A DNA stretch of 39,472 nucleotides from a virus (taxonomy: Duplodnaviria; Heunggongvirae; Uroviricota; Caudoviricetes), in the IMG/VR virus record IMGVR_UViG_2695420732_000023; one strand, written 5' to 3'. A program made the translations under genes and the position numbers. Numbering within the stretch: position 1 is the first letter of the stretch; each line of letters opens with the position of its first letter. The notes beneath the pieces are model-generated. The model did not search any database. It had not been told where the DNA came from and saw only the letters and a list, made by a program, of their open reading frames with translations. Shown one piece after another: positions 9,486 to 39,046 of the stretch.

Positions 9486-9974
9486 ATGAGTCTGTTAAAT
9501 GACGTTCAGAAATTCATTGAAGCCCATCCGGGGTGTACTTCCGGAGACATTGCGGATGCTTTTACAGGTTACTCACGGCAGCGCGTTCTGCAGTCAGCAA
9601 GCAAGTTACGTCAGAGTGGGCGTGTGGCTCACCGTTGTGAAGGAGATACACGCAGACATTTCCCGCGCCTGACTGAGAGAGCGCAGGAACCGGAACCACA
9701 ACCAGTTCGTGAAACCAGACCTGTGCGCAATTTCTATGTCGGCACTAACGATCCCCGTGTGATTTTGTGCCTGACCCGCCAGGCGGAAGAACTGGAGTCC
9801 AGGGGCTTATACCGTCGTGCTGCAACCGTGTGGATGGCGGCATTCCGTGAAAGCCACTCCCAGCCAGAACGAAACAATTTTCTGGCGCGTCGTGAGCGGT
9901 GCTTACGGAAAAGCAGCAAGCGCGCTGCATCGGGTGAAGAGTGGTATCTGTCAGGGAATTACGTGGGGGCTTAA
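9486..9974 (+). CDS. PerC/Pch-family transcriptional regulator-like protein
   Basis: segment AEELESRGLYRRAATVWMAAF resembles PerC-family motif by recall; ATG with GGGGG RBS; stop overlaps next start (TAATG). Confidence 0.45.
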   Translation: MSLLNDVQKFIEAHPGCTSGDIADAFTGYSRQRVLQSASKLRQSGRVAHRCEGDTRRHFPRLTERAQEPEPQPVRETRPVRNFYVGTNDPRVILCLTRQAEELESRGLYRRAATVWMAAFRESHSQPERNNFLARRERCLRKSSKRAASGEEWYLSGNYVGA

Positions 9975-10627
9975 TGAGTAATAAATATTGCCAGGCGCTG
10001 GTGGAACTGCGGAACAAACCAGCCCATGAACTGAAGGAAGTGGGCGATCAGTGGCGCACGCCGGACAACATTTTCTGGGGAATTAACACCCTGTTTGGCC
10101 CGTTTGTTCTGGATCTGTTCACTGACGGTGATAACGCCAAATGTGCCGCGTATTACACGGCGGAAGACAACGCGCTGGCGCATGACTGGTCAGAACGTCT
10201 TGCGGAGCTTAAAGGTGCTGCCTTTGGTAATCCCCCATACAGCCGCGCCAGTCAGCATGAGGGGCAATACATCACCGGCATGCGTTACATCATGAAACAT
10301 GCCAGTGCCATGCGTGATAAGGGCGGGCGCTATGTTTTCCTGATCAAAGCTGCCACCAGCGAAGTGTGGTGGCCGGAAGATGCAGATCATATTGCTTTTA
10401 TTCGCGGGCGTATTGGTTTTGAACTGCCTGTCTGGTTTATCCCGAAAGACGAGAAGCAGGTACCGACAGGAGCTTTTTTCGCTGGTGCTATTGCTGTTTT
10501 TGACAAGACCTGGAAGGGACCGGCAATCAGCTACATCGGGCGCGATGAACTTGAGGCATGTGGTGAGGCGTTTCTGGCGCAGGTTCGCCAGCAGGCGGAA
10601 AAACTGGTCAGGGAGATGGCGGCATGA
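9974..10627 (+). CDS. phage DNA N6-adenine methyltransferase (Dam-like)
   Basis: start MSNKYCQALVELRN...DQWRTPDNIF and catalytic FGNPPYS (NPPY) motif typical of phage Dam MTases. Confidence 0.8.
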   Translation: MSNKYCQALVELRNKPAHELKEVGDQWRTPDNIFWGINTLFGPFVLDLFTDGDNAKCAAYYTAEDNALAHDWSERLAELKGAAFGNPPYSRASQHEGQYITGMRYIMKHASAMRDKGGRYVFLIKAATSEVWWPEDADHIAFIRGRIGFELPVWFIPKDEKQVPTGAFFAGAIAVFDKTWKGPAISYIGRDELEACGEAFLAQVRQQAEKLVREMAA

Positions 10628-12154: not shown

Positions 12155-13150
12155 GTGACCGTGAGAGCACTACTGACCCCTGAAATTGCCCCGCGTATGG
12201 GGATCGTATTGTTCAGACCAGGTTCAGAGCTGATGCCCCTGTTTATGCAGGGGCGTGTCCTGCTGGAGCCTGAGCCGGAACGTTATTCATCTTTTGCCAG
12301 TGGTGCCGTTCCGGCGGCATCACAACCGCTGGCGGATGATCCTGCCGTTCGGGCCGTGTTCCGCAATGAGGCAGTGATCCGTCGTGCTGGTGGAGTGGAA
12401 TGTCTTGAAAGCTGGTTACTTCGTGAAAAAGGCTGCCAATGGCCTCATTCCGACTGGCACAGCGAGAACATGACCACAATGCGACACGCGCCGGGCGCAA
12501 TCCGTCTGTGCTGGCACTGCGATAACCAGCTGCGCGATCAGTTCACGGAACGGCTGGAATCAATGGCAACGGATAACTGTGCCCGCTGGGTGTTATCTGT
12601 TGTGCGCCGTGATCTCGGTTTTGATGATAGTCACGTTGTAACAATGCCGGAACTGTGCTGGTGGCTGGTTCGTAATGACCTGGCTGATGCCTTACCGGAA
12701 AGTGCAGCCCGTAAGGCACTGAGATTACCTAAGCCTGTTGTGCCGTCTGTCACCCGGGAGAGTGACCTTGTTCCTTCGGTTCCTGCCACCAGCATTATCC
12801 AGGATAAAGCGAAAAAGGTGCTGGCGCTGAAAGTGGATCCAGAGTCGCCGGAGTCTTTTATGTTACGCCCAAAATGTCGCCGCTGGGTTAATGAAAAGTA
12901 CACGCGCTGGGTTAAGACACAGCCGTGTGCATGTTGTGGAAAGCCTGCTGATGATCCCCACCACCTGATAGGCCACGGTCAGGGTGGAATGGGTACAAAA
13001 GCGCATGACCTCTTTGTGTTGCCTTTGTGCAGAAAGCATCACGACGAGCTGCATGCGGATACCGTGGCATTTGAAGAGAAGTATGGCTCCCAGCTGGAGC
13101 TGATATTTCGTTTTATCGATCGTGCGCTGGAAATAGGCGTGCTGGCCTGA
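12155..13150 (+). CDS. DUF968-like protein with C-terminal Cys/His (HNH-like) motif
   Basis: 331-aa ORF; C-terminal CACCGKPADDPHHLIGHG...CRKHHDELH; position upstream of Q as for Qin ydfU-type genes; start codon uncertain (GTG at 12155). Confidence 0.5.
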   Translation: MTVRALLTPEIAPRMGIVLFRPGSELMPLFMQGRVLLEPEPERYSSFASGAVPAASQPLADDPAVRAVFRNEAVIRRAGGVECLESWLLREKGCQWPHSDWHSENMTTMRHAPGAIRLCWHCDNQLRDQFTERLESMATDNCARWVLSVVRRDLGFDDSHVVTMPELCWWLVRNDLADALPESAARKALRLPKPVVPSVTRESDLVPSVPATSIIQDKAKKVLALKVDPESPESFMLRPKCRRWVNEKYTRWVKTQPCACCGKPADDPHHLIGHGQGGMGTKAHDLFVLPLCRKHHDELHADTVAFEEKYGSQLELIFRFIDRALEIGVLA

Positions 13151-13167
13151 TTTTGTGGAGAAATTTG

Positions 13168-13533
13168 ATGCGTGATATTCAGATCATCCTTGAACGTTGG
13201 GGGGCATGGGCAGCTAGTGATAGCTCAGGAGTGGACTATTCGCCTATAGCTGCTGGGTTTAAGGGACTTCTTCCCTATACCAGTAAGGCACGCCAAGCTT
13301 GTTCAGATAATGATGCGCTAATTATTGAAAGTTGCTTGGAGCAACTAAAAAAAAGAAAACCTTATGAGCATTCTCTACTGGTTGCGCATTATTTGTACGG
13401 GTTTTCAAAGCGGAAGATTGCCAAAGTACAAGGAAAGGATGAGAAATTAATCCGTATAGAAATATTGTTAGCAGAGGGATTCATTGATGGTTGCCTTTCT
13501 ACTCTCGATATTCATTTAGATATGGAGTTATAA
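13168..13533 (+). CDS. late-gene antiterminator Q (QuuD-like small Q family)
   Basis: MRDIQIILERWGAWAA...IAAGFKGLL...LDIHLDMEL resembles DLP12 QuuD by recall; GGAG RBS 7 nt upstream of ATG at 13168; position before lysis genes. Confidence 0.7.
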   Translation: MRDIQIILERWGAWAASDSSGVDYSPIAAGFKGLLPYTSKARQACSDNDALIIESCLEQLKKRKPYEHSLLVAHYLYGFSKRKIAKVQGKDEKLIRIEILLAEGFIDGCLSTLDIHLDMEL

Positions 13534-13542
13534 TAAAAATAA

Positions 13543-13567
13543 CCCCGTAAACTTTATGTTTACGGGG
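13543..13567. terminator. bidirectional rho-independent terminator between convergent Q and TIR-like gene
   Basis: perfect 10-bp stem CCCCGTAAAC/GTTTACGGGG with 5-nt loop, A-run upstream and T-run downstream. Confidence 0.6.
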
Positions 13568-13572
13568 GAAGG

Positions 13573-14388
13573 TTATTTCTTTTTTTTATTACTTTCAGAT
13601 AATCGTCGGTTTAATGTGTATTTTATTTGGTTCCTAATCATTTTTTCAGGAATGTCATATTTGTCTAAGAATGATATTATTTCATCCTCGTCAAGCAATC
13701 CATTCTTTATAATTTCATCTATCTGTTTTTGTAGATACCAAACATCCTTCTGTTCTACAGGAGTTAAATTCATATGGCTATTTATGGAGTTGATAGTAGC
13801 ATCACGTTCAAGAACTCTAATCCTTTGATTTAATGAACGAGTGTTTTGTAATATTTCAGATAAAAGATCTTGTTCAGTACGTGGTTTTACTTCTTCAGTT
13901 GGAGGGTATTGATCTAAAGCTCGTTTAAAATTTTTTTCAAATTGCTCCCAGTATGTATTAAAAACTTGCTTTAGAATACGGTCATCTAAAGATTTATCGA
14001 CAAGACAATTGTTTATTGTCCTTACTAATTCCCAAACACTCTCTTTATTTGGCGTTGTGTGATTGAATTGAGCAAGTGGATCTTTTAAATCTTCTGGTTT
14101 TAAGTCAATCAAGAATGTACAAACTTTATTTGTTGAAAGTCCTTTTGCTAGTGCTCCTGTTTCAAACAAAATCCATGGTTTATTTTTATTTTCTTGTGTC
14201 AAACATACAATGCCGACAGATACATCTTTTAATTTATCATTAATTTCAGAGAACCATATAGCGCCACGATCAATATCTCTGGTTGAAATCCATGGCTGCG
14301 AAGCTTGGATAACACACTTCAGCCAGTCGCTAATAAGTTCTGCAACAGCTTGACTTCTTTGCCCAGACCAACTTATGAACACTTTCAT
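13573..14388 (-). CDS. TIR-like domain protein (N-terminal TIR-like fold, C-terminal domain of unknown function); candidate antiphage defence moron
   Basis: start MKVFISWSGQRSQAVAELISDWL (FISWSG motif typical of bacterial TIR-like domains), later WILFETGAL with candidate catalytic Glu; visibly AT-rich versus flanks; opposite strand to all neighbouring late genes; GGAG RBS. Confidence 0.65.
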   Translation of the reverse strand: MKVFISWSGQRSQAVAELISDWLKCVIQASQPWISTRDIDRGAIWFSEINDKLKDVSVGIVCLTQENKNKPWILFETGALAKGLSTNKVCTFLIDLKPEDLKDPLAQFNHTTPNKESVWELVRTINNCLVDKSLDDRILKQVFNTYWEQFEKNFKRALDQYPPTEEVKPRTEQDLLSEILQNTRSLNQRIRVLERDATINSINSHMNLTPVEQKDVWYLQKQIDEIIKNGLLDEDEIISFLDKYDIPEKMIRNQIKYTLNRRLSESNKKKK

Positions 14389-14512
14389 TATGTACTCCAT
14401 GTAATCACTCAAAAGGGACTGAAATTTACATTAAAAATTAAATAAAATCACTCACGCGGTCCGCAGAAACCATTGTAATCTGTTATGAGTGGTTACTTCG
14501 CCACACAACTTA

Positions 14513-14538
14513 AACCCGCCGTCGAGCGGGTTTTGTCG
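14513..14538 (+). terminator. tR'-like intrinsic terminator upstream of holin (candidate Q-antiterminated terminator)
   Basis: AACCCGC-cgtcga-GCGGGTT followed by TTTTG; lies between Q-proximal region and lysis cassette. Confidence 0.45.
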
Positions 14539-14685
14539 TTTCTGGGCCTAGGGATTAATTGCTTCTGCCCTATCCCGCAGTTATCCATTGGCTCGGCTTC
14601 TTTTACGTTTCCGCTTCTGATTTGCGGTTCGTGGTACACCCTCAATTTGCACCTCCTTTATCGGCGAGGTGAGAGATAACTACAA

Positions 14686-15012
14686 ATGCCTCATAACCCA
14701 AATACCTGGCTGGAGTTGTTCCAGAGCTGGTGGCGTGGAGACACACCACTGGGCGCAGTAATTATGTCGATCGTTATGGCTGGCTTGCGCATTGCCTATT
14801 TTGGCGGTGGTGGTGGCTGGAAGCGAAAAACGCTCGAGATTTTTCTCTGTGGCGCTCTGACACTGACTTTTGCATCCGCTCTTGAGTATGTCGGATGGCC
14901 TAAATCTCTTTCTGTTGCCATTGGTGGCGGCGTTGGGCTGATCGGGGTCGATGCTATTCGTGGTGCGGCAATGAGAGTAATCGGTAACAAGTTTGGTAGC
15001 TCGAAGGAGTAA
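14686..15012 (+). CDS. putative holin
   Basis: 108-aa ORF immediately upstream of endolysin; hydrophobic segments (VIMSIVMAGLRIAYFGGGGG, LCGALTLTFASALEYVGW, VAIGGGVGLIGV) and charged C-terminus. Confidence 0.6.
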   Translation: MPHNPNTWLELFQSWWRGDTPLGAVIMSIVMAGLRIAYFGGGGGWKRKTLEIFLCGALTLTFASALEYVGWPKSLSVAIGGGVGLIGVDAIRGAAMRVIGNKFGSSKE

Positions 15013-15015
15013 TTT

Positions 15016-15492
15016 ATGCAGGCACTAAATTCCCAGCGTAAAGCTTTCCTCGATATGGTGGCATGGTCAGAAGGAACGGATAACGGACGGCAAAAAACCA
15101 GAAATCATGGTTATGACGTCATTGTAGGCGGAGAGCTATTTACTGATTACTCCGATCATCCTCGCAAACTTGTCACACTAAACCCAAAACTAAAATCAAC
15201 AGCCGCCGGACGTTATCAGCTTCTTTCACGCTGGTGGGATGCTTATCGTAAGCAGCTTGCTCTGAAAGACTTCTCTCCGAAAAGCCAGGACGCTGTGGCA
15301 TTGCAGCAGATTAAGGAGCGTGGCGCTTTACCGATGATTGATCGCGGTGATATTCGTCAGGCAATTGACCGTTGCAGCAATATCTGGGCTTCACTGCCGG
15401 GCGCTGGTTATGGTCAGTTCGAGCATAAGGCTGACAGCCTGATTGCAAAATTCAAAGAAGCAGGCGGAACGGTCAGAGAGATTGAGGTATGA
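15016..15492 (+). CDS. R: endolysin, lambda R-type lytic transglycosylase
   Basis: 158-aa; [33 protein letters not shown]... matches lambda R nearly throughout by recall; AAGGAG RBS. Confidence 0.9.
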
Positions 15493-15981: not shown

Positions 15982-16275
15982 TTATTGTGAGCAATACACA
16001 CGTGCTTCCAGCGGAGTATAAATGCCTAAAGTAATAAAACCGAGCAATCCATTTACGAATGTTTGCTGGGTTTCTGTTTTAACCACATTTTCTGCGCCGC
16101 CACAAATTTTGGCTGCATCAACAGTTTTCTCCTGTCCAATTCCCGAAACGAAGAAATGATGGGTGATGGTTTCCTTTGGTGTTACTGCTGTCGGTTTGTT
16201 TCCAACAGTAAACGTCTGTTGAGCACATCCTGTAATAAGCATTGCCAGAGCGGCAGAAAACAACATTTTTTTCAT
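15982..16275 (-). CDS. bor: Bor outer-membrane lipoprotein (serum resistance)
   Basis: 97-aa from MKKMLFSAALAMLITGCAQQ (lipobox); matches lambda Bor by recall; track ORF trimmed to ATG at 16275 with AGGA RBS. Confidence 0.88.
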   Translation of the reverse strand: MKKMLFSAALAMLITGCAQQTFTVGNKPTAVTPKETITHHFFVSGIGQEKTVDAAKICGGAENVVKTETQQTFVNGLLGFITLGIYTPLEARVYCSQ

Positions 16276-16455
16276 CTTATTATCCTGCATTGTTAAAAAC
16301 GGCAGAATCCTATGTGACAACAATTAAACGATAGTTAAATGGATTGATGAAAATTAAAACTATATAGGTGTACGGTCAGACTATTGGAGGTAGTCAGGAT
16401 TTGAATGTCAGTCTGTTGTCGGCATTCTGGCAATGCAATTTGGATAAAGCGGGGA

Positions 16456-36689: not shown

Positions 36690-38579
36690 TTAATCGTGTT
36701 TTGGCCATACTTTCAATGCAATTTCCCCCAACATTTTACCCCGCTCCAGGATTTCATCCTCATCCCATTTATCCTTAACTATAAGTGGAATGTTCAGTCG
36801 TAGATTGGTGTGGACGATGAGAGCATCACGTTTTTTCAGAAATACAGCATTCTGAACAGAACGGTTTACGCTAAGGTTAAGCAAAGTTAGATTTCCCAAC
36901 GTAGCTATCGCTTGTTGCCGTTTCCTTACCAGTAGCTGTTCTGGGGTAAGATCGGTTCCAGACAGAACAATTTGGTTCAATACCGTAGCATCTGAATTTG
37001 TCACCATATGACCATTTTCGAGAGGCCAACAGGAATACCAACTTTGAGGCATAAGATGATCGATATCGAGGTTAGAAAGATTTGGAACATCAGGCTTCTC
37101 TGTCTTCACTTGGCGACAAAGTTCTCTTTCAAGTTCCGTTAACATTGAGCGCATTTTCGGTGCGTCGAGCCTGCCAGGATAAAGTGGAGCATTGATGCAA
37201 GCGTTGAGAAATTCTGAGTCCCCAGGCCAACGTGAGGCTTCGCCATTTAAGCTATTGAGGATATTACGTAACTCAACACTGGAAATTTCTGTTTTAGACA
37301 AGTGCCGCAATACATTCATAAATACATTGTTGTAATTCTTTGGCGTCAGGCCACATACGGCTCTTCGTACTACGTAGGAGACAAGATCATTATACATGGC
37401 TGCTTTCTCATCATCGGCGATGTTAGCTATCGAAATGAACAAAGCAAGCGGATAAAGTGTCGTCACATCATAGGCTGCGATGCGATGTCCAAAGTGTGAG
37501 ATGGGGGTTGTGCCAAAACCACCAACCAATTCTTTATATTGTGATGCATATTGTTTGAGGCGCTTTACTTGCAGATCTGCTCGTTGTGAAGGCAAGTCCT
37601 TACTTACATAATCACGATACTCATTGTAAAGACGAGACAGATCGATTTCACGTTGCCTTTCTGATTGCAATGTTGCATGCACTAGCCACTCCATGCGTGG
37701 TTTATTAATACGACCACGACGTTGTCTTTCTGACCAGTACGTATCTTCAAAGATCTTCCACTCATTCTCATATAATTCAACAGCATTAATATTTTCATGT
37801 TCAGCGCACATAAAAATATAATTGCGAATAAGATCTGTGGCATGAAGTTCCGCACCTCTGCCATTTAATGTTTCAAAAATTATTTGAGCGTCATCTTCAG
37901 CCTCGAGAAATATGCTTACTAGTTTCAGATCCGTCAAGACAGCCTCAATTAATGCTACAGCATTTTCTCGTGGTGAGTGATTTTCTATTTTAATCCACTT
38001 TATAAAGGCTTCAGTAAAAAAACATAATGCTTCTAGTGATGGCGGGTGATTAAAATGCTTACGCAACGTACCATGCTGCGTGAAACTATCAGAGAATACA
38101 TTCCGGATATCGTCAATATTTTCAACATTAAAACTTTGAATAAAATGAGTTTGATCCCGAAAAGTTGGCCACAGTTTGAAGCGCTCTACTTCTTTATTTC
38201 GCATTGTGTCTTCGTTTGAGTTTTTCAGGCAAGACGAAATGAGAGGCTCTAAGTAGGAAAGATCTGTTGCACGTAATGCTAATCGGATGGATGCCAGAAC
38301 ATATTGAAGAGTGGTCAATCGTTGCTGACCATCAATAATATGTATGGAATCTACACCGAATAATCCTTTTTTTGGTTGAGGTTCCAGTACAACTGCACCA
38401 AGGAAATGGGGAGTTGGTTTTGTACCCGAGAGCCGGGATTGTGCTTTCTCTAGGATATCCTCCAGTAGAGCTGACCATTGGTTTCGCTGAGTCCATACAT
38501 AGGCACGTTGATAGAATGGAACACAGTATTGTCGGCGGTCTTGAAAAAGTTGTTGGACAGTTAGCGTCTCGGATTTCAT
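36690..38579 (-). CDS. fused DUF262/DUF1524 protein (GmrSD-like putative type IV modification-dependent restriction endonuclease)
   Basis: N-terminal FYQRAYVWTQRNQW and DGQQRLTTL (DUF262/ParB-like NTPase motifs), C-terminal DIDHLMPQS (DUF1524 His-Me finger-like); AT-rich; start set at ATG 38579 (MKSETLTV), alternative ATG at 38639. Confidence 0.75.
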   Translation of the reverse strand: MKSETLTVQQLFQDRRQYCVPFYQRAYVWTQRNQWSALLEDILEKAQSRLSGTKPTPHFLGAVVLEPQPKKGLFGVDSIHIIDGQQRLTTLQYVLASIRLALRATDLSYLEPLISSCLKNSNEDTMRNKEVERFKLWPTFRDQTHFIQSFNVENIDDIRNVFSDSFTQHGTLRKHFNHPPSLEALCFFTEAFIKWIKIENHSPRENAVALIEAVLTDLKLVSIFLEAEDDAQIIFETLNGRGAELHATDLIRNYIFMCAEHENINAVELYENEWKIFEDTYWSERQRRGRINKPRMEWLVHATLQSERQREIDLSRLYNEYRDYVSKDLPSQRADLQVKRLKQYASQYKELVGGFGTTPISHFGHRIAAYDVTTLYPLALFISIANIADDEKAAMYNDLVSYVVRRAVCGLTPKNYNNVFMNVLRHLSKTEISSVELRNILNSLNGEASRWPGDSEFLNACINAPLYPGRLDAPKMRSMLTELERELCRQVKTEKPDVPNLSNLDIDHLMPQSWYSCWPLENGHMVTNSDATVLNQIVLSGTDLTPEQLLVRKRQQAIATLGNLTLLNLSVNRSVQNAVFLKKRDALIVHTNLRLNIPLIVKDKWDEDEILERGKMLGEIALKVWPKHD

Positions 38580-39046
38580 GGTATACCTGTAAGCGACATT
38601 GTACAAAAGTGAGGAGTTAATCTGATTTAGAACAATCATTTTATGTTGCTATGATACAACGTATTTGTTACCGGTTAAGTAAAAAACGCGTCTGAACGCT
38701 GACGTTTTAGGGCTTTACTAGTTATTCTTTCTTATCTCTTCATCATCCCATCGGCATCCTGTCGAGGTTGTTGACTTGTTGTTATTTATTTTGTTTAGGC
38801 GCTGTTTAATTATTATTGATGGGACTGGTGGTGAGAGGTGATTGAAACCGCAGACAGGTCGTATGCAAGACGTGCTGCGGTTGGCTGATGCACTTTTGAT
38901 AGTGCAAGTATTGAATGATTGCCAGTCACAGCGGATTGTACTTAGGTAATATGACGGTTCAAGGCGTTTAAACTGAAACCATCCACATATCAGTCTCTTC
39001 AAACATTTCCTAAATCGTTCGGCTTATCTGTTCTTTCTCACGTTTG

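Follow-up and report, generated by a model that had tools for sequence, protein, structure and literature searches.

The DNA described here, IMG/VR record IMGVR_UViG_2695420732_000023 (Caudoviricetes; the whole stretch of 39,472 nucleotides is referred to as the window), is from a lambdoid Escherichia coli prophage and carries on its minus strand, next to the gene for antiterminator Q, a gene for a 271-residue TIR-domain protein. The protein comprises three parts: an N-terminal TIR domain, a conserved helical part, and a hypervariable helical tail. The explanation that we favor, with a confidence only slightly above even, is that the protein is self-contained, combining a sensor and a TIR-type NAD+-cleaving enzyme (NADase) on a single polypeptide, and that it acts in abortive infection as cargo of the prophage. 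Speaking for this explanation are the invariant W-x3-E motif of the TIR domain, purifying selection on the gene, a tail with the character of a sensor, the solitary state of the loci, neighboring defense genes, and a GmrSD enzyme in the same prophage; from these, we infer both the defense function and the consumption of NAD+.

The N-Terminal Domain Adopts a TIR Fold with an Invariant Glutamate

The open reading frame (ORF), 816 bp at 13573..14388 on the minus strand, begins with ATG and encodes 271 residues plus a stop codon, with the protein starting MKVFISWSGQRS. A preliminary description of this DNA had given the same frame, and both the translation and a RefSeq entry with the same coordinates in Escherichia coli 268.2 (WP_024221339.1, "TIR domain-containing protein") agree with it. 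The gene is also matched by the PADLOC model PDLC03016 (E = 1.2e-57) and by PHROG 13899 (E = 3e-100).

The preliminary description had further proposed a TIR-like domain, and profile and structure checks both bear this out. The Pfam family TIR_2 (PF13676) matches residues 3–97 with 31.1 bits against a gathering cutoff of 28 (E = 3.8e-7). An AlphaFold2 model, built from a 149-sequence alignment, has a mean predicted local distance difference test score (pLDDT) of 90.7 over the full length and displays the flavodoxin-like, five-stranded parallel β/α fold of TIR domains, with strands at residues 2–6, 31–34, 56–63, 88–93, and 109–111. When this model is compared with the Protein Data Bank (PDB) by Foldseek, the top matches are NAD+-cleaving TIR domains: the TIR-APAZ protein of SPARTA (E = 5e-7), the SpbK filament (9PHB), RUN1, RPPT, SARM1, and AbTir. 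Searches of other kinds gave less: a sequence search of solved structures returned a marginal plant TIR match along with spurious coiled-coil matches to the helical half, the BFVD library of viral structures gave weak TIR-fold matches only, and NCBIfam had no match to the protein. Residues 1–130 (13999..14388, minus strand) are thus a genuine TIR domain.

Residues W72, E76, and G78 are invariant in the 149 sequences and include the W-x3-E motif of NAD+-cleaving TIR domains. A plant TIR ADP-ribosyl cyclase, 7XOZ, gives a weak sequence match in which the segment PWILFE is aligned to SWCLDE, placing E76 on the catalytic glutamate of plant TIRs. E76, the glutamate of WILFETGAL singled out as a candidate in the preliminary description, is therefore well supported by sequence comparison as the putative catalytic residue.

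No transmembrane (TM) segment or signal peptide is present in the protein, and neither Pfam nor PADLOC detects a nucleotide-sensing SAVED, STING, or CARF domain fused to the TIR domain. The features of the TIR effectors of CBASS, Pycsar, and type III CRISPR systems are accordingly not seen, with no sensing domain and no cyclase among the scanned ORFs of the window.

A Conserved Helical Part Is Followed by a Hypervariable Tail

The C-terminal half of the protein is all-helical in the AlphaFold2 model. As had been reported before, this half holds no recognizable motif: it matches no Pfam family, and Foldseek finds no counterpart among solved folds past approximately residue 145. Conservation in the family divides the helical half into two parts. 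Residues 131–195 (13804..13998, minus strand) belong to the conserved core of the protein, contain helices 136–160 and 172–205, the latter running on past the boundary, and show a heptad-like hydrophobic periodicity. Residues 196–271 (13576..13803, minus strand) form the tail, with helices at 210–228, 234–244, and 248–270 and a pLDDT of 91–94 in the full-length model.

In 116 full-length relatives, residues 1–195 are mostly 60–99% identical to the query, with a drop to 46% in a linker at residues 151–165; apart from this linker, the 15-residue blocks of residues 131–195 are 60–77% identical. Over residues 196–271, identity to the query is 12–38% and column entropy is 2–3.2 bits. The homology of 150 representatives usually stops near residue 195. 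Comparison of pairs gives the same division: core sequences have a median pairwise identity of 0.82 and tails one of 0.21, and in 87% of the pairs whose cores are 80–90% identical, the tails are less than 35% identical.

The two regions also differ at the codon level. Among the genes of E. coli, Klebsiella, Vibrio, and Halomonas, synonymous divergence (pS) is saturated at 0.7–0.85, nonsynonymous divergence (pN) of the TIR domain is 0.06–0.08, and pN of the tail is 0.43–0.49. Because pS is saturated and pN nevertheless low, the similarity of the TIR domains across hosts reflects long-term purifying selection rather than recent transfer. These patterns indicate that the gene is functional and that residues 1–195 are under strong purifying selection. 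The tail does keep a scaffold motif, G230-x3-EDEI-x3-L-x3-D-x-P, and evolves about as fast as this motif allows.

On the strength of its variability, residues 196–271 are proposed to be a sensor or specificity module. Residues 131–195, as modeled, could possibly serve as an oligomerization stalk.

The Family Is Widespread and Its Members Are Mostly Solitary

Of 5426 complete E. coli genomes, 25 contain the gene, always at ≥99% identity, always on the chromosome, and always with the frame intact. Phage mEp390 has a 59% identical gene (gp47) in the same place and orientation and with a similar hairpin, and prophages of Klebsiella carry a 72% identical gene, with a Q of the same type on one side and a different lysis cassette on the other. 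Beyond these close relatives, the family numbers 2083 matches in a database clustered at 90% identity and 3401 representatives at the 50% level (E ≤ 1e-30). The homology nearly always spans the query from residue 1 to approximately 195, in proteins of 250–300 residues. A pattern scan in which each species was represented by one genome recovered 532 loci, distributed over Proteobacteria, Bacteroidota, Planctomycetota, Cyanobacteria, Bacillota, Verrucomicrobiota, Acidobacteriota, and other phyla.

The preliminary description had noted that no ThsA, cyclase, or sensor partner is adjacent to the gene, and this holds in the window and in most of the family. A tblastn search with ThsA found no homologue in the window, and one with both TM partners of the TIR protein of phage AC1 gave nothing significant there (best E = 2.3) and nothing in 89 other loci. 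Pfam and PADLOC, run on the other cargo-like ORFs of the window, detected no SIR2, SLOG, Macro, cyclase, or TM effector. When all ORFs within 2.5 kb of the TIR gene were clustered for 76 loci, the commonest neighbor family occurred at only six of them; that is, there is no conserved neighbor.

The solitary state is clearest in Vibrio cholerae, where two identical copies of a TIR gene of the family lie 2.1 kb apart in the superintegron of chromosome 2 (CP053803.1; locus L004:5832-9187). Each copy is a lone ORF between 138-nucleotide VCR-like repeats, and a 300-nucleotide stretch is 100% identical between the copies; as single ORFs bracketed by such repeats, the copies are individual integron cassettes. 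The Halomonas copy likewise stands alone, beside a gene for AbiJ.

Although no single neighbor is conserved, the neighbors have a common character. Among 134 flanking genes from 67 loci, PADLOC recognized components of MADS, PARIS (AriA), AbiL, Septu (PtuA), Lamassu (LmuA), Gabija (GajA), and Thoeris, as well as Cas1. Since the flanking genes match so many unrelated systems, the family habitually resides in defense islands. In a metagenome-assembled genome of Bermanella (L013:3865-4863), the gene directly 5′ of the family member encodes an unrelated TIR protein in tandem (PADLOC PDC-S66, RT-TIR, and ThsB-like).

The breadth and company of the family also bear on the idea that the protein is a virulence factor similar to Tcp, blocking Toll-like-receptor signaling of an animal host and serving lysogenic conversion beside the bor/iss gene of the same prophage. 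MyD88 and TIRAP do appear in the structural ranking, which is attributable to the shared fold, as sequence identity is only 10–13%. We judge such a role very improbable: the family is common among free-living bacteria of the sea, soil, and fresh water, with cyanobacteria, Planctomycetota, and Nitrosomonas among them; the protein has neither a signal peptide nor a TM segment; the NADase-type glutamate is invariant; and the neighbors are anti-phage systems.

Comparison with Known TIR Systems

The closest relative that has been tested experimentally is the TIR protein of the P2-like phage AC1, which is 38% identical over residues 1–180 (BLASTP, E = 7e-43). Rousset et al. (2022) reported that a three-gene block of AC1, encoding a protein with two TM segments (2TM), a protein with one (1TM), and the TIR protein, protects against lambda, LF82_P8, and P2, and proposed that the TIR protein makes a messenger that activates the TM proteins (PMC9122126). 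Similar to the window protein, the AC1 protein has an N-terminal TIR domain and a homologous first conserved helix, lacks a TM segment, and is prophage cargo in a variable hotspot. The differences lie in the surroundings and the C terminus. In AC1, the TIR gene follows the two TM genes, whereas the window gene has a terminator and Q as neighbors to one side and the putative late-promoter flank to the other, and the C-terminal ∼90 residues are unrelated. The PADLOC model PDLC03016, named "TIR-TM", is the model of the AC1 TIR subunit; it scores the window protein at 194 bits (profile positions 1–246 of 293) and the AC1 protein at 393 bits. With a score about half that of AC1, the window protein belongs to a sister subfamily. 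The model name had raised the thought that a C-terminal TM helix was lost from the window protein; as the AC1 protein is also without one, this thought was discarded.

The relation to AC1 invites the alternative that the gene is a decaying remnant, an AC1-type TIR subunit that has lost its TM partners and with them its function. PADLOC does recognize the protein only as a subunit of a multigene system, and the partners are missing. There is little chance that this account is right, however, given the frame that is intact at ≥99% identity in the 25 E. coli genomes, the very strong purifying selection that the core has undergone over saturating synonymous divergence, and the thousands of solitary homologues of full length. 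In addition, the window protein ends in a module specific to its own family, distinct from the AC1 tail rather than a shortened form of it.

The system that most resembles the proposed one is SpbK of the Bacillus subtilis element ICEBs1, a single-gene TIR abortive-infection protein (PDB 9PHB) for which the trigger, the NADase products, and the filament have all been demonstrated (PMC12847820, PMC8880864). SpbK has 266 residues, made up of a 94-residue helical sensor and a TIR domain, and its NADase requires head-to-tail assembly of the TIR domains (PMC12847820). The dodecameric portal protein YonE activates it through clustering, and it also makes N1-cADPR, the receptor for which, if there is one, is encoded elsewhere (PMC12847820). 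Both SpbK and the window protein are single polypeptides that join a TIR domain to a small helical domain, have no partner gene, and are carried by a mobile element. SpbK has its helical sensor at the N terminus and its TIR domain at the C terminus, the reverse of the order in the window protein. The two proteins share no sequence similarity outside the TIR fold, and the window protein has the extra conserved long helices of residues 131–205.

Single-protein systems have also been described in E. coli. Wang et al. (2024) sorted all E. coli TIR proteins of 2289 genomes into 64 clusters, of which 32 were tested and 20 found inactive (PMC11350192), so that a place in this catalog does not by itself mean function. 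TIR-V, along with TIR-VI and TIR-IX, each with a TIR domain as the sole recognizable domain, protected as single proteins from their native promoters in a manner dependent on the TIR active site, with portal or tail-fiber proteins as triggers (PMC11350192). The window protein is probably among the 64 clusters. TIR-V and TIR-IX have a variable N terminus and a conserved C terminus, the opposite of the order observed here, which argues against their being the same protein.

ThsB of Thoeris, a presumed infection sensor that likewise stands alone as a TIR protein, offers a further parallel. In Thoeris, ThsA is encoded next to the TIR gene; the window and most loci of the family have no ThsA. The ThsB models of PADLOC reach only E = 0.018 (13.5 bits) with the window protein, compared with E = 4.5e-71 for a canonical ThsB at a locus of the family, L059.

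No paper was found that names the window protein: a full-text literature search for the accession, "TIR_tm", and mEp390 returned nothing relevant, and the integron preprint of Darracq does not mention TIR. A 2026 Nature paper on prophage abortive infection is unrelated.

A Single-Polypeptide Model and Its Alternatives

In the favored explanation, the protein would be made in the lysogen and would remain inactive as long as its TIR domains are unstacked, because the active sites of TIR NADases form only between TIR domains that are stacked head to tail. The variable tail would bind a protein of the invading phage that forms multimers, such as the portal or another virion protein, and this binding would cluster the TIR domains, possibly with the aid of the conserved helices. 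The assembled TIR domains would then cleave NAD+ into nicotinamide and ADP-ribose (ADPR) or cyclic ADPR. The loss of NAD+ would arrest or kill the cell before the infecting phage has run through its cycle, as in abortive infection, and sister lysogens would be protected. By analogy, we infer that the mechanism follows the logic of SpbK with the domains in the opposite order.

Several observations weigh against this explanation. AC1 was tested as a three-gene block only, such that its TIR subunit is not known to protect alone. The role of the tail as a sensor rests on its variability; the fold comparison returned no match for it, and when the tail is modeled in isolation, the predicted template modeling score (pTM) is 0.34 and the packing is uncertain. 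Expression in the lysogen is assumed; a consensus promoter scan of the minus strand 5′ of the TIR start codon found none. Finally, a ThsA of the type with two TM segments and a Macro domain (2TM+Macro) is adjacent to the TIR gene of distant family members at four of 80 loci (L059, L062, L038, and weakly L076), and at 12 of the 76 loci of the neighbor test, a tightly linked ORF on the same strand has TM-like segments, although the ORFs of these 12 loci do not form one family. Such linked membrane proteins are hints that related TIR proteins may act by signaling to an effector.

The last of these observations lead to the main alternative, in which the window protein is an orphan signal maker similar to ThsB. 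It would sense infection, and its TIR domain would yield an ADPR-derived messenger rather than deplete NAD+; a type II ThsA or some other membrane protein, for instance, encoded at a different site in the host, would be the effector that kills or arrests the cell. The prophage or integron cassette would in that case supply a resident system with a new sensor. Apart from the ThsA genes beside relatives of the same architecture and the linked TM-containing ORFs, this alternative draws on AC1, the closest validated relative, which is encoded with two TM proteins and for which its authors proposed a messenger (PMC9122126). SpbK, too, makes N1-cADPR as well (PMC12847820), and type II Thoeris is present in E. 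coli as TIR cluster 1 of Wang et al., so that E. coli hosts may often contain a compatible effector (PMC11350192). We nevertheless consider an orphan signal maker unlikely, while giving it serious weight. The great majority of loci have neither ThsA nor any conserved neighbor, and single-ORF cassettes and one-gene morons across many phyla would be hard to maintain if they depended on host genes. The failure of the PADLOC ThsB models on the window protein points the same way.

The adjacency to ThsA is itself weak evidence, as can be seen at locus L059 of Chryseobacterium binzhouense (L059:3533-5789). There, the 187-residue canonical ThsB mentioned above and a 280-residue 2TM+Macro ThsA (E = 6.6e-111) are followed directly by the TIR gene of the family, which may encode a second ThsB or be merely a neighbor. 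L059 thus already has its own ThsB, and L059 and L062 are related to each other and not independent. Adjacency may simply reflect clustering in islands, since MADS and PARIS are equally frequent. Three Pasteurellaceae loci had at one point been taken as the origin of the ThsA matches among the neighbors; this was rejected, the origin being L059, L062, and L038.

A variant that would unite the solitary loci with signaling can also be conceived. Rather than being complete systems, the solitary TIR proteins may act as plug-in sensors distributed by prophages and integron cassettes, each with a conserved signal-making TIR core fused to an exchangeable recognition module of ∼75 residues, that feed a resident membrane or Macro effector such as a type II ThsA. 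This notion is speculative, and we rate it as distinctly unlikely; if true, mobile elements would extend the immune repertoire of a resident system in trans.

Boundaries and Transcription Signals of the TIR Gene

The start of the favored single-polypeptide gene is probably ATG 14388. Upstream of this codon, the frame is open as far as TTG 14412, which would give eight extra residues (MSDYMEYI). TTG 14412 is disfavored because ATG 14388 is the RefSeq start and is preceded, 6 nucleotides 5′, by a Shine-Dalgarno sequence, GGAG (14395..14398, minus strand), read from the sequence.

The gene stands out in composition, as had been remarked before, with a GC content of 0.325 compared with 0.515 for the remaining window; along the sequence, GC is 0.30–0.35 over 13400–14450 and 0.50–0.58 on either side. 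The homologues at loci L001, L004, L005, and L006 have a GC content of 0.36–0.41 in surroundings of 0.42–0.56, so that the gene is AT-richer than its context in every host examined. This pattern suggests that the composition of the gene has stayed foreign or that low GC is selected for.

Between the converging Q and TIR genes lies a hairpin (13543..13567) with a perfect 10-bp stem, including six G-C pairs, and a 5-nucleotide loop; compared with shuffled sequences, its fold has z = −4.6 on both strands. The preliminary description had called it a bidirectional terminator, a reading that stands for one direction. On the minus strand, the U-tract adjoins the stem and the terminator scan calls the hairpin, which is a clear terminator of the TIR transcript. 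On the plus strand, the U-tract begins 5 nucleotides past the stem and the scan makes no call, so that for transcription leaving Q, the hairpin is possibly a terminator of a weaker kind at best. In the annotation of mEp390, the equivalent hairpin is marked as a terminator in both directions.

On the opposite side of the gene, the promoter of minus-strand cargo must lie in or overlap 14420–14545. An alignment of five prophages 5′ of the TIR start codon shows an AT-rich, loosely conserved region with a possible extended −10 element (TGATTTTAT), which we do not consider established. An Rfam scan of 13400–14800 returned nothing approaching a gathering score.

The TIR Gene Lies as Cargo Between Q and a Putative Late Promoter

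The antiterminator gene Q (13153..13533, RefSeq start 13165, plus strand; Pfam Phage_antitermQ, E = 9.6e-49) converges on the TIR gene. On the other side, the first lysis gene encodes a lambda-family holin S (14686..15012, plus strand; Pfam Phage_holin_3_1, E = 9.8e-25), and the lysis cassette comprises this lambda-type holin, a GH24 lysozyme, and Rz. Parts of 12900–15100 are matched in 3829 of the 5426 E. coli genomes, and the middle of the region is matched in only the 25 that have the TIR gene.

The extent of the exchangeable block was obtained from the prophage of E. coli strain FREC5. Homology to FREC5 ends at 13499 and resumes at 14420, which delimits a swappable block of approximately 13500..14419 comprising the terminator, the TIR gene, and its 5′ leader. 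In place of this block, FREC5 has ∼1.5 kb between the same Q and holin flanks (L090:1170-2582), with two unrelated minus-strand genes encoding proteins of 149 residues (weak DUF4064 match) and 313 residues (no family). In the same slot, E. coli BEN5202 has one unrelated minus-strand gene (L091:2219-2665) for a 148-residue protein of no family. PADLOC gives no match for the slot genes of either prophage; they are candidate defense or lysogenic-conversion genes. The comparison upholds the earlier view of the interval as a moron or cargo site, as alternative genes occur between conserved flanks and the insert has its own terminator and a deviant GC content.

Adjacent to the block is a flank that is kept whatever the cargo (14420..14545, plus strand), as seen when five prophages that differ in cargo, with three kinds among them, were aligned, together with promoter and terminator scans and a hairpin fold. 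It contains the promoter-like sequence CTGAAA-18-TAAAAT (14419–14448), a near-palindrome, GCGGWCCGC, an invariant sequence, GAGTGGTTACTTCGCCAC, and a hairpin followed by a U-tract (14512–14533). By analogy with pR′, qut, the 6S RNA, and tR′ of lambda, this flank is probably the late promoter pR′, qut, and short-transcript terminator (tR′) of this type of Q. The TIR gene had been placed between Q and the lysis cassette, which is correct for the interval as a whole; its position is more exactly between Q and the putative late promoter, qut, and terminator module. Given this position and its orientation against the late genes, the gene should not be traversed by the late transcription that depends on Q.

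This arrangement may be compared with other lambdoid morons of the Q-to-lysis interval, such as stx in Shiga toxin (Stx) phages, which similarly are AT-rich, independently terminated cargo near the late switch and vary among otherwise similar prophages. The stx genes lie downstream of pR′ and tR′ and are expressed by Q-dependent read-through. The TIR cargo, in contrast, is found on the opposite strand and upstream of the putative pR′, where late transcription would not reach it.

The fixed position beside the late-gene switch in temperate phages of E. coli and Klebsiella and in mEp390 has a bearing on a further alternative, in which the protein serves the phage itself by degrading nucleotide signals of host immunity, by adjusting NAD+ at induction, or by excluding close relatives only. 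The AC1 system does act on P2 relatives too (PMC9122126). A phage-serving role is nonetheless improbable in our view. Most relatives are found outside phages, in integron cassettes, defense islands, and chromosomal loci across the 532 species; the placement on the opposite strand and outside the late unit is the layout of morons expressed in the lysogen; and a hypervariable tail is better suited to diverse foreign targets than to a fixed host signal.

The bor/iss gene for a serum-resistance lipoprotein (15982–16323, minus strand; Pfam Lambda_Bor, E = 9.9e-31; annotated as iss in E. coli 268.2) lies just past Rz and is a second minus-strand moron; bor is a lambdoid moron downstream of the lysis genes, and the TIR gene is likewise a lambdoid moron. 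The preliminary statement that the TIR gene is on the opposite strand to every neighboring late gene is therefore nearly, although not entirely, accurate, the exception being itself a moron. Near the right end of the prophage, a second defense cargo (36690–38639, minus strand) encodes a full-length, 649-residue type IV methyl-directed restriction enzyme of the GmrSD type (PADLOC mREase_IV, 1434 bits; Pfam GmrSD_N and GmrSD_C). In the early region, a Dam-type N6-adenine methyltransferase (9941–10627, plus strand; Pfam Dam, E = 1.1e-45; PADLOC MTase_II) may shield the phage from restriction.

Implications for TIR Immunity and Prophage Cargo

The TIR name of the protein in RefSeq, its PADLOC match as an AC1 subunit, and the existence of single-protein TIR systems in E. 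coli (PMC11350192) are already known. We found no description in the literature consulted of the solitary architecture with a hypervariable tail, of its vast distribution, or of the placement of the gene upstream of the putative late promoter. Because defense-finding tools register the gene only as part of an AC1-type system with components missing, censuses of defense systems probably undercount the family.

If the solitary protein protects alone, it would be among the smallest and most widespread of the bacterial TIR immune receptors, and its tail of ∼75 residues would provide specificity in a compact and possibly exchangeable form on a highly conserved enzymatic core of 195 residues. The protein would then also be a convenient model for the target-induced clustering of TIR NADases and a candidate scaffold for engineered sensors. 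For phage biology, the comparison of related prophages draws attention to a cargo slot, probably insulated from transcription of the late operon, between Q and the putative late promoter, in which related prophages carry different genes.

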